Shown: in pieces, positions 33,510-34,906 of the stretch
Layout: each line of letters begins with the position of its first letter
How positions within the stretch are numbered: the first letter of the stretch is position 1
From: Escherichia phage LF82-1
Sequence record: PV648359
DNA: 64,000 nt
Strand: one strand, 5' to 3'
Made by a program: the position numbers and the translations under genes
The notes under the pieces: model-generated
Databases searched by the model: none
What the model was told of the DNA's origin: nothing
What the model saw: only the letters and a program-made list of their open reading frames with translations

Positions 33510-33749
33510 TTATTTGAATTTCTTGGCAATGTTGATATAACGTAAAGCTTCAGAATCTATACTTCCAAGAACACTATGAAGGAATGCATCAGTGTAGTAT
33601 TCCAATTGAACAGGTTCTTTAATCACTTTAGCCGCTTTGGTTTCAAACAGGCCCATAAGGGCCTTTTTAAGAATTTGTTCGTTAGTGTTCAGTTTTATAG
33701 TCAAAATCTCTTCATTAAGTTGGTGGTTAAAAGTTTTTCTAGAAATCAT
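33510..33749 (-). CDS. hypothetical protein
   Basis: 79 aa ORF between gene 42 and the Cys-rich ORF. Confidence 0.4.
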   Translation of the reverse strand: MISRKTFNHQLNEEILTIKLNTNEQILKKALMGLFETKAAKVIKEPVQLEYYTDAFLHSVLGSIDSEALRYINIAKKFK

Positions 33750-34906
33750 TCCGGGTACCTCAAAGCGTCATCAGAGTTAGTTATATCAATAATAGATATA
33801 GAGTTTTCTGATAACCCATTTTTAGATAACTGACGTTTATAATATCTTTCACAATATGTACACGTCGTCCCGCAGATTTCATTAGCACAATCGAAATCTG
33901 GATGTCTGAACCACCTTTTTTCTAAAAAACCGTCTAACAATGAGGTTTCAATATTTACTGTATGTGAAAACTCAGTCTCATTTTCAAGAGTGAAAATAGT
34001 CTCTAAAGGCTTCCACAGTTCTAACAAATTACCTTCAAACTTTTCAGAAGCGTATGCTTCAAGAACTTTCAAAATGTAGTCTGTGCTACCTGTACGTCCT
34101 GAAACTTTGAATTGAGTGATACCAATATCATTATAAAGTTTCAAATCTTGAGGACGAACAAAACGAGTTCTCAACCAGTTAAATGGGTCTGTATCACGAG
34201 CTTTAATGCAGTGTTGCATTGGATATCCATTTAAGGATTTAGCATCATCAGCTGTAACATCAGTACTATGGAAAATATAGCAAGAGTCACGATAACTACA
34301 ATGTGTTGTATACCCTTTACCAGCATTAGAACAGAACTCATTTACAAGAACTTCAAATATTATATTGTTCTTATTGCAAAACTCTGCTGCACGCTTCAGG
34401 AAAGAAACTGAACGGTTCTTATGAATTCCACAGCAGACCTTTTTGATATTGTATTGGTCATGTAAGTATTTTATTTGAGTTACAGCATCGACATGTAGAA
34501 TTGTTGAAACTTCAATCTCAATGTCTTTATTGACTTCACGAACAATTTCCATAACAACAGGGTTAGCGATAGTAATACGCCATACGCCTATTGACCAAAG
34601 ATACTGAACATAATCCTGAATAGCTTTCTTCTTCCACTCGACTAGTTCTCTTTTTGAACCAGGATTTATCGTGTTGAGTGTATAGTTAAAGCAAATACCT
34701 AATTCGTTACAACGTTTAACGTAATCTTCTAACATCTTTTTGTCAACGTCAGGAAGCCTAAAATCAGGTCTGGCTGCTACAAAAGCCATTTCTCTTGTAG
34801 AGCCATATACTTCGTTTATCAAGCTATTAGGATAGGTTTTATTGAGCTCTACGATTTTATCAAGAAGAGCTAAATCAAAATTCGTTCCGATTTTAAAAGT
34901 ATTCAT
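33746..34906 (-). CDS. Cys-rich protein of unknown function within sugar-nucleotide cluster
   Basis: 386 aa; C-terminal CANEICGTTCTYCE cluster and internal CSYRDSC suggest metal/Fe-S binding; no radical-SAM CxxxCxxC. Confidence 0.5.
   Translation of the reverse strand: MNTFKIGTNFDLALLDKIVELNKTYPNSLINEVYGSTREMAFVAARPDFRLPDVDKKMLEDYVKRCNELGICFNYTLNTINPGSKRELVEWKKKAIQDYVQYLWSIGVWRITIANPVVMEIVREVNKDIEIEVSTILHVDAVTQIKYLHDQYNIKKVCCGIHKNRSVSFLKRAAEFCNKNNIIFEVLVNEFCSNAGKGYTTHCSYRDSCYIFHSTDVTADDAKSLNGYPMQHCIKARDTDPFNWLRTRFVRPQDLKLYNDIGITQFKVSGRTGSTDYILKVLEAYASEKFEGNLLELWKPLETIFTLENETEFSHTVNIETSLLDGFLEKRWFRHPDFDCANEICGTTCTYCERYYKRQLSKNGLSENSISIIDITNSDDALRYPE

Follow-up and report, generated by a model that had tools for sequence, protein, structure and literature searches.

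A close relative of the locus considered here is the DNA modification cluster of phage RB69, whose DNA contains mono- and di-arabinosylated 5-hydroxycytosine (5hoC) and not hydroxymethylcytosine (PMC13326640). The hydroxylated base is made by gp48, a 5-hydroxy-deoxycytidine monophosphate (5-hydroxy-dCMP) synthase that holds its flavin loosely, needs that flavin reduced and takes up oxygen from 18O2; gp48 and a deoxynucleoside monophosphate (dNMP) kinase together suffice aerobically (PMC13326640). RB69 gp50 appears in the same work in Table 1 only, as a 'Sugar or heterocycle reductase' with a fold match to PDB entry 5d88, and is never discussed; other pyrimidine hydroxylation pathways, for RNA, are mentioned in the discussion and are not tied to gp50 (PMC13326640). 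Here we describe the syntenic ortholog of gp50 (RB69ORF050c) in Escherichia phage LF82-1 (sequence record PV648359), a gene at 33,746 to 34,906 on the minus strand of a stretch of 64,000 nucleotides, referred to below as the window. Its product belongs to the U32 family, and we give roughly even chances to the proposal that it is an O2-independent, prephenate-dependent cytosine deoxynucleotide C5 hydroxylase, providing a route to 5hoC parallel to that of gp48.

Four U32 proteins of E. coli serve as points of reference. RlhA is required for 5-hydroxycytidine at C2501 of 23S ribosomal RNA (rRNA), with a need for prephenate synthesis and for the assembly of iron-sulfur (Fe-S) clusters; C169 and C176 in its U32 motif and C580 and C611 in its C-terminal part are essential, and E161 nearly so (PMC5727448). 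TrhP, prephenate-dependent and O2-independent, is paired with the O2-dependent TrhO in forming 5-hydroxyuridine at position 34 of transfer RNA (tRNA ho5U34; PMC6599085). UbiU and UbiV each bind one [4Fe-4S] cluster through four cysteines (PMC6747719), and both deviate from the canonical form of the CX6CX15CX3/4C motif common to most U32 subfamilies (PMC6747719; Pelosi 2019). The oxygen donor in the UbiU/V reactions is prephenate, and expression of a chorismate mutase (CM) domain rescues a pheA tyrA mutant (PMC10990095).

A preliminary description of the window, made from its letters alone, had noted a Cys-rich open reading frame (ORF) of 386 aa at this place, and the coordinates and length are borne out: the gene is ATG-initiated, and its product has 13 cysteines (3.4%, against 0.9–2.1% in six neighbouring genes), including both of the motifs quoted there, the internal ...HCSYRDSCY... 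and the C-terminus ...DFDCANEICGTTCTYCERYY. The protein matches the Pfam model Peptidase_U32 (PF01136) at 42.2 bits (E 7e-11), well past the gathering score (GA) of 22.4; most of its homologs have precomputed matches to the same model, and PHROG 5757 is matched over the full length. An AlphaFold2 model (pLDDT 89.7) has as its best fold match 5d88, the sole solved U32 member, and so predicts a TIM barrel of the same type. This structure is Mk0906, a 'collagenase-family' protein of Methanopyrus kandleri with 14% identity to the phage protein, and at 247 residues it is without the phage C-terminal Cys domain. Fold matches beyond U32 are to generic TIM barrels, and a phmmer search of all PDB sequences returned nothing at E up to 1, so that kinship to solved structures is visible at the fold level only. 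The gene and its parts are as follows.

33746..34906, minus strand: U32-family Fe-S protein gene, ATG start, 386 aa (Pfam PF01136, PHROG 5757, RB69 synteny)
34049..34627, minus strand: Peptidase_U32 model region, residues 94-286 (Pfam; hhalign to E. coli RlhA residues 46-258)
34208..34333, minus strand: core metal-ligand segment C192-x10-C203-x5-C209-x23-C233, a predicted [4Fe-4S] site and a variant of CX6CX15CX3/4C
34094..34108, minus strand: K267-x3-R271 (FKVSGR), aligned with FKIEGR of RlhA
33851..33889, minus strand: C-terminal cluster C340-x4-C345-x3-C349-x2-C352, a predicted second metal or Fe-S site (conservation)

The cysteines are strongly conserved. Ten are invariant among 30 homologs reaching down to 46% identity, those of the core and C-terminal groups included. 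In a set of 119 full-length divergent representatives (27–50% identity), C192 is conserved in 99% and C203 and C233 in 100%, position 209 is occupied by Cys in 61% and by His in 38% (99% together), and K267 and R271 are present throughout; C158 and C177 are not conserved family-wide. The C-terminal cysteines are each conserved in 93–95%, and 110 of the 119 keep all four. This pattern is far beyond chance, and it defines the family by two four-ligand sites, one of them in or near the U32 domain as in the hydroxylase group, with the Cys/His exchange at position 209 being as expected of a metal ligand. Membership in the U32 family, with two metal sites, is in our judgement very close to certain. 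K267 and R271 are candidate residues for binding the carboxylates of the substrate or of prephenate.

The preliminary description had stated that the protein is without a CxxxCxxC motif, which is literally wrong, as residues 345-352 read CGTTCTYC; here the protein resembles radical SAM (S-adenosylmethionine) enzymes, down to the aromatic residue before the last Cys (C345-GTT-C349-TY-C352). A radical SAM assignment was dropped all the same. No Radical_SAM (PF04055) match is obtained at E up to 0.1, even though NrdG, from the same window, gives one, the motif is C-terminal and outside the barrel and not near the N-terminus of a partial barrel, and a conserved fourth Cys precedes it, which suggests that the second site is probably fully ligated.

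Among the four MG1655 paralogs compared with the phage family profile by hhalign, RlhA is the best match (E 9.5e-6, 83% probability, 204 columns, RlhA residues 46-258), followed by TrhP (E 4.7e-3), UbiU (8e-3) and UbiV (0.14). This alignment pairs phage E190, C203, C209 and H213 with RlhA E161, C169, C176 and H180, and FKVSGR with FKIEGR. MAFFT again places C209 at the second canonical Cys, with C192 as the first and E185 in the E-x-F strand, and has C203 lie within a phage-specific insertion; of the canonical Cys, the third and fourth are missing. Residues essential in RlhA thus have counterparts in the phage protein, consistently so for C209 (aligned with C176 of RlhA and its equivalent in UbiU) and ambiguously for the first Cys, which is C192 or C203 depending on the method. 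The canonical motif as such is absent: its first two positions have counterparts and its CX3/4C pair does not.

The resemblance to RlhA extends to the proposed chemical outcome, a hydroxyl at C5 of cytosine, and to the presence of two Cys groups, the C-terminal one of RlhA comprising C572, C580, C611 and C614. The C-terminal groups of the two proteins are analogous and cannot be aligned, identity over the core is about 23%, and RlhA keeps CX6CX15CX3C where the phage protein has the family-specific C192/C203 and C233 with a compact Cx4Cx3Cx2C tail. RlhA is also a protein of 653 aa with a DUF3656 domain, acting on rRNA in pre-50S particles. The phage protein has neither DUF3656 nor the RlhA-type C-terminal domain nor a length near 650 aa, and Pfam matches the U32 core alone; with 386 aa and only this core, it represents a separate subfamily and not an RlhA ortholog.

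The neighbourhood of the gene in other phages adds a second line of evidence. In nine of eleven phage lineages, the U32 gene has beside it or just behind it a gene matching CM_2 (PF01817), the model of type II chorismate mutase (32.8–46.2 bits, GA 27). This CM gene overlaps the U32 stop codon in Serratia phage LC53 (44.6 bits), Enterobacter phage Entb_45 (40.9 bits) and Shewanella phage Thanatos-2 (32.8 bits), and it stands between the U32 gene and a ThyA homolog in Pectobacterium phage PM2, Providencia phage PSTRCR_127, Yersinia phage TG1, Proteus phage phiP4-3, Escherichia phage EcS1 and Serratia phage 92A1 (36–46 bits). The cluster of Thanatos-2 is rearranged, with the U32-CM pair still together. 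Residues R8, R25, K36, E49, S71 and Q75 are invariant in the phage proteins, and we take them to be the active-site Arg11, Arg28, Lys39, Glu52, Ser84 and Gln88 of E. coli AroQ. A tblastn search with the Entb_45 CM finds 51 phage records, and among the matches listed all 40 of 40 adjoin the ThyA homolog, the U32 gene or both; the GenBank record of LC53 (Fineran lab) already labels the U32 neighbour a chorismate mutase domain protein. Because RlhA, TrhP and UbiU/V all need prephenate, we count a CM gene beside the U32 gene as a genomic proxy for prephenate use, and we regard prephenate-dependent hydroxylation as the probable chemistry.

The reaction we envisage would proceed as follows. On the model of RlhA, TrhP and UbiU/V, a [4Fe-4S] cluster would be bound in the TIM-barrel core through C192, C203, C209 and C233, and a second metal or Fe-S site at C340, C345, C349 and C352 would relay electrons. 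The ring of a cytosine deoxynucleotide, most simply dCMP, would undergo two-electron oxidation at C5, with the hydroxyl drawn from prephenate, which would then decarboxylate to phenylpyruvate; in most of the sister lineages the prephenate would be made by the phage's own CM, encoded beside U32. The product would be the 5hoC that these phages arabinosylate. Family membership, fold, ligand positions, linkage and distribution come directly from the analysis, and from them we infer metal content, prephenate use, substrate and independence of O2, and hence the activity. That the substrate is a cytosine deoxynucleotide, with an anaerobic role for the enzyme, is to our minds an evenly balanced question.

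The name under which Lee et al. list RB69 gp50 (Table 1, PMC13326640) suggests another role, that of a reductase or redox partner which would feed electrons to the gp48 flavin or reduce a sugar or pyrimidine intermediate. The loosely bound gp48 flavin, which must be reduced, two predicted metal sites suited to electron transfer, and the methylenetetrahydrofolate reductases and other redox TIM barrels among the weaker fold matches are in keeping with it. These redox barrels match no better than generic ones, however, no U32 member is known as a reductase, no reduced sugar or base has been reported in RB69 DNA, gp48 with a kinase works in E. coli without U32, and the Acinetobacter and Dhakavirus phages lack the gene. 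The CM linkage in nine of eleven lineages would be left unexplained and argues against a reductase, which we hold to be unlikely. The linkage argues also against the genuine protease implied by most GenBank records, where the gene is named 'peptidase', 'collagenase-like protease' or 'U32 family peptidase'. Some U32 proteins have been reported as collagenolytic, but no catalytic mechanism of proteolysis is known in the family (PMC5727448). Every genetically characterised member is needed for hydroxylation, the conserved residues are those of metal ligands, and the context is one of nucleotide metabolism and CM, all of which makes a peptidase extremely improbable.

CM is not found in every lineage. 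The Klebsiella phages fall into two types, one with CM beside the ThyA homolog (H75/H161-type, 18 records) and one, represented by Clarke_MM3, in which U32 is followed directly by the ThyA homolog and a thymidylate-kinase-like gene has moved upstream of U32. With no CM in this type or in Mosigvirus, to which the window belongs, CM has been lost at least twice. LC53 alone has a 'putative endonuclease' gene between the HAD phosphatase and U32 genes (L002:4352-4990), probably a homing endonuclease that invaded the modification cluster.

In the window, the place taken by CM elsewhere is occupied by a gp49-like ORF of 79 aa.

33510..33749, minus strand: gp49-like 79-aa ORF, sharing the ATGA of the U32 stop with its own start; a conserved small partner, not a CM

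A CM role for gp49 was considered and rejected, with no CM_2 or NCBIfam match at E up to 10 and an hhalign probability of 0.3% against the phage CM family. Direct homologs of gp49 occur in Mosigviruses only (at least 80% identity). It is also 30–50% identical to small ORFs directly after U32 in 92A1, PM2 and TG1, phages that have CM as well. Together these form a family of small helical proteins of 57–79 aa, found directly after U32 in four genera, with the motif L..LF..KA...YY.DAF.HS..G.I..E..RHIN (window 33510-33749, minus strand; L010:10971-11195, L017:2655-2828, L019:2697-2894). In Mosigviruses, genomic and metagenomic, gp49 is often shortened to 47–58 aa, which suggests relaxed constraint. 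The gene orders point to a fuller module of U32, gp49-like, CM and ThyA homolog from which Mosigviruses have lost CM; if the enzyme uses prephenate, host PheA/TyrA must supply it there.

The U32 gene is present in 221 phage records, all at least 80% identical to the query, and the hosts are all Enterobacterales or Shewanella (Escherichia, Klebsiella, Shigella, Serratia, Proteus, Yersinia, Enterobacter, Providencia, Edwardsiella and a few others including Shewanella). The arabinose-activating enzyme is found in 366 records, 57 of them from phages of Acinetobacter, a strict aerobe; in Lazarus, the one such phage inspected, the ThyA homolog comes straight after the phosphatase gene, with neither U32 nor CM. 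NrdD distribution was only weakly informative as a proxy for aerobic-only phages; Acinetobacter is not among the top ten genera. At each of twelve inspected phage loci U32 is within the 5hoC/arabinose cluster, in eleven of them between the HAD phosphatase and the ThyA homolog, and the rearranged one of Thanatos-2 beside the kinase and UvsX. Across genera, U32 is the most, or jointly the most, conserved protein of the cluster, with 79–87% identity compared with 72–83% for the ThyA homolog, 52–72% for the kinase/nucleotidyltransferase (AfhE), 44–68% for the glycosyltransferase and 66–88% for UvsX. The U32 module, missing from Lazarus, DLP3 and the E. coli Dhakavirus Bp7, is a discrete accessory insertion in the cluster. 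Accessory status also follows from the sufficiency of gp48 and dNMP kinase in air and from phage DLP3, which makes the modification and whose described cluster is without a U32 gene (PMC13326640).

More distant relatives are found in metagenomes. An exhaustive search of 1.84 billion representative proteins gave 114 relatives at E<=1e-30, 719 at E<=1e-10 and 1,185 at E<=1e-3, and relatives with 50–57% identity come from contigs that are large and phage-like, one of them 466 kb long. A module recurring on five contigs (L011, L023, L024, L014 and L015) comprises genes for a radical-SAM/SPASM protein, a protein of about 404 aa, thymidylate kinase, a DNA polymerase III alpha subunit fused to uracil-DNA glycosylase, in some cases dCMP deaminase, U32, a protein of about 250 aa and single-stranded DNA binding protein. 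The ~404-aa protein has sub-threshold glycosyltransferase (GT4/GT1) matches and the ~250-aa protein sub-threshold NAD-epimerase matches. In another arrangement, U32 relatives stand beside NT5C, deoxynucleoside kinase (dNK), nucleoside deoxyribosyltransferase and a second U32-like gene. On the metagenomic contigs, the 7–8 kb around U32 contain neither CM nor a ThyA homolog. These neighbourhoods point to deoxypyrimidine metabolism rather than RNA, and the module may be an uncharacterised hydroxylation-plus-glycosylation system of DNA modification in phages of anoxic samples. The two U32-type genes of the 86-kb contig L012 (8001-9098 and 13227-14360) lie among genes for NT5C, a nicotinamide mononucleotide transporter, dNK and nucleoside deoxyribosyltransferase; the second, at 21.7 bits just below the Pfam cutoff, comes after a radical-SAM/SPASM gene. 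The pair recalls the two-subunit arrangement of UbiU/UbiV.

These distributions bear on a further reading, in which the protein would be an RNA hydroxylase of the RlhA/TrhP type, placing 5-hydroxycytidine or 5-hydroxyuridine in host or phage rRNA or tRNA and so tuning translation, with CM boosting prephenate, also for uridine 5-oxyacetic acid (cmo5U). The characterised U32 enzymes of nucleic acids act on RNA, RlhA is the closest E. coli paralog, CM would serve equally well, and T4-like phages carry tRNA genes. Yet the gene is confined to phages with the 5hoC/arabinose cluster, lies inside that cluster at every locus inspected, and is absent from the far larger T4-like set (221 records, against 2,911 with NrdD). 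The phage protein is without the extra domains of RlhA, and its distant homologs neighbour deoxynucleotide enzymes and not RNA enzymes. The exclusive association with the 5hoC cluster and the deoxynucleotide neighbourhoods argue against an RNA substrate, and we consider it improbable.

Over the 7-kb region around the gene, the window shares 100% identity with Escherichia phage LF82-2 and its siblings; with RB69 (Mosigvirus, Straboviridae) the figure is 97.8%. The cluster runs in the order DNA polymerase, arabinose-5-phosphate isomerase, kinase/nucleotidyltransferase, HAD phosphatase, U32, gp49, ThyA homolog, glycosyltransferase, kinase and UvsX. The flanks named in the preliminary description are right, apart from the gp49-like ORF that intervenes on the ThyA side; the label 'gene 42' for the ThyA-side neighbour is not, as this is no dCMP hydroxymethylase but an ortholog of the 5-hydroxy-dCMP synthase gp48. 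The remaining genes of the cluster are these.

31852..32751, minus strand: putative DNA arabinosyltransferase 1 (RB69 gp46:47 ortholog), a single ORF (ORF; RB69 synteny)
32751..33467, minus strand: ThyA-like 5-hydroxy-dCMP synthase (RB69 gp48 ortholog; Pfam Thymidylat_synt; 99% identity to RB69 gp48)
34963..35364, minus strand: HAD phosphatase (RB69 gp51/AfhF-like), arabinose-1,5-bisphosphate 5-phosphatase by homology (PHROG; PMC13326640)
35349..37034, minus strand: bifunctional sugar kinase/nucleotidyltransferase (RB69 gp52:53/AfhE-like), making UDP-arabinose by homology (Pfam; homology)
37216..37851, minus strand: arabinose-5-phosphate isomerase (RB69 gp55 ortholog; Pfam; PHROG; homology)

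In the window, one ORF each encodes the kinase/nucleotidyltransferase (561 aa) and the glycosyltransferase (299 aa), and RB69 record AY303349 splits both (ORF052c/053c and ORF046c/047c), in agreement with the sequencing errors noted for RB69 (PMC13326640). A 7-bp-stem inverted repeat (34918-34935) is found in the 56 nt that separate the HAD stop from the start of U32 at 34906, directly before the A-rich leader and ATG of the U32 gene; it could influence translation initiation or mRNA processing of that gene. A scan for promoters and terminators from 31.0 to 38.2 kb gave 24 sites against 28 +/- 5 in shuffled sequence, which is not above chance.

With the U32 gene embedded among sugar-activation genes, a different tailoring step can be envisaged, such as prephenate-dependent hydroxylation of the arabinose or of a minor base, or a sugar 'epimerase' role. 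The Durham Collection paper names an 'epimerase' among the cluster's putative sugar genes, and the metagenomic modules have weak epimerase-like and glycosyltransferase-like neighbours. Against this, mono- and di-arabinosyl-5hoC are the only forms reported in RB69 DNA, a product of this kind is also made by phages that lack the gene, the protein has no similarity to any epimerase or transferase, and known U32 chemistry targets aromatic or heteroaromatic rings; we find such a step quite unlikely. The preliminary description had also offered a transferase or an epimerase-like enzyme as candidates, and we dropped both, with no Pfam, NCBIfam or PHROG match to such families and only generic TIM barrels as fold matches. 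Its remark that no glycosyltransferase motif is present agrees with the complete lack of glycosyltransferase family matches in Pfam, NCBIfam and PHROGs, and its interpretation as a whole, which includes an Fe-S enzyme acting on the sugar or base, is partly supported.

The case for an anaerobic role of the proposed hydroxylase draws on genes elsewhere in the window.

52682-54499, minus strand: anaerobic ribonucleotide reductase NrdD (Pfam NRDD, 572 bits)
52215-52685, minus strand: NrdG, activase of NrdD (Fer4_12/Radical_SAM)
23345..23881, minus strand: candidate gp56-like deoxycytidine triphosphate (dCTP) pyrophosphatase (phrog_173 NTP pyrophosphohydrolase, E 2e-45)

NrdD and NrdG show the phage to have the means of producing DNA precursors without O2. 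The RB69 gene RB69p028 has been named dCTPase (PMC13326640). Removal of dCTP by the candidate dCTPase would make the supply of 5-hydroxy-dCTP obligatory, and the two capacities together suggest that O2-free 5-hydroxy-dCTP is needed, yet the sole known hydroxylase is O2-dependent. NrdAB and NrdDG of T4-like phages offer a precedent in the same genome for paired aerobic and anaerobic enzymes of DNA-precursor synthesis, at the level of physiology only, the proteins and chemistry being unrelated to U32.

The arrangement proposed here, of a U32 hydroxylase beside gp48, mirrors the dual systems of E. coli, in which an O2-dependent enzyme (the rhodanese TrhO, the flavin monooxygenases UbiI-H-F) and a prephenate-dependent U32 enzyme (TrhP, UbiU-UbiV) yield the same product, much as the phage aerobic and anaerobic ribonucleotide reductases do. 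UbiU and UbiV carry two [4Fe-4S] clusters across two chains, and the phage protein would carry its two predicted sites on one. The phage redundancy is deduced by analogy, its substrate would be a deoxynucleotide or DNA, and there is no UbiT-like partner. As the proposed functional analog of RB69 gp48 and its HY126 homolog, the U32 protein would share product and cluster with gp48, with only the gp49 ORF between the two genes; gp48 has a different fold and cofactor, takes its oxygen from O2 and is common to all 5hoC phages examined, with U32 as an accessory gene.

Several points weigh against this proposal. Reconstitution of a U32 protein as an in vitro hydroxylase has yet to be achieved (PMC10990095), and the known substrates of the family are RNA and polyprenyl phenols and not mononucleotides. 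The canonical motif is half kept, its third and fourth Cys positions missing from the alignments. There is no CM in the Mosigvirus lineage of the window itself, and Klebsiella phage Clarke_MM3 has no gene at that place. The E. coli Dhakavirus Bp7 carries the 5hoC/arabinose cluster, and the 15.7 kb inspected contain neither U32 nor CM, so that a facultatively anaerobic host is not sufficient to predict the gene, and the correlation with host oxygen stands on few independent lineages. The prediction draws on sequence, a structural model and genomic context.

The gene, its 5d88 fold match and the CM label in LC53 are already on record, and the 2018 RB69, Thanatos and Durham papers did not take up the U32 gene. 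The proposal of a U32-CM pair acting as a prephenate-dependent, O2-independent 5hoC hydroxylase was not found in the accessible literature, and priority elsewhere is possible.

Two further regions of the window are noted in passing. The segment 52215-55568 (minus strand) holds in a row NrdG, NrdD, endonuclease VII (54496-54969) and a PinA-like protease inhibitor (55005-55568), with 4-nt overlaps at the NrdG/NrdD and NrdD/endonuclease VII junctions. At 20220-21467 (minus strand), two adjacent paralogous ORFs of 202 and 193 aa match the PHROG of RNA polymerase ADP-ribosylases (Alt/ModA/ModB-like), a tandem duplication typical of T4-like phages.

The arabinosyl-5-hydroxycytosine pathway was resolved only in 2025-2026, with one known hydroxylase whose oxygen derives from O2. 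These phages destroy dCTP and infect enteric bacteria living largely without oxygen, and a prephenate-using U32 enzyme would explain how they replicate in the gut, where their known hydroxylase could not work. The newly recognised organic oxygen-donor chemistry would then be extended from RNA and quinones to DNA, and phage-encoded chorismate mutase would have a function. More tentatively, at somewhat under even chances, we suggest that the phage U32 subfamily comprises the first prephenate-dependent hydroxylases to have DNA precursors as substrates, opening an O2-independent path to 5-hydroxypyrimidine DNA bases with CM as an auxiliary metabolic gene supplying the organic oxygen donor. The pathway would be widespread, with 114 representative clusters at E<=1e-30, metagenomic phages included. 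The large metagenomic phages with U32 and no nearby ThyA-type enzyme would then imply undiscovered hydroxylated and glycosylated DNA in anoxic habitats. As a small and soluble U32 protein of one chain, acting on a simple substrate, the proposed enzyme could also be the in vitro system that the U32 field lacks. Mosigviruses serve in phage therapy, and DNA modification governs sensitivity to restriction, CRISPR and type IV systems; the modification state of these phages might not be the same in aerobic laboratory culture as in the anoxic gut.

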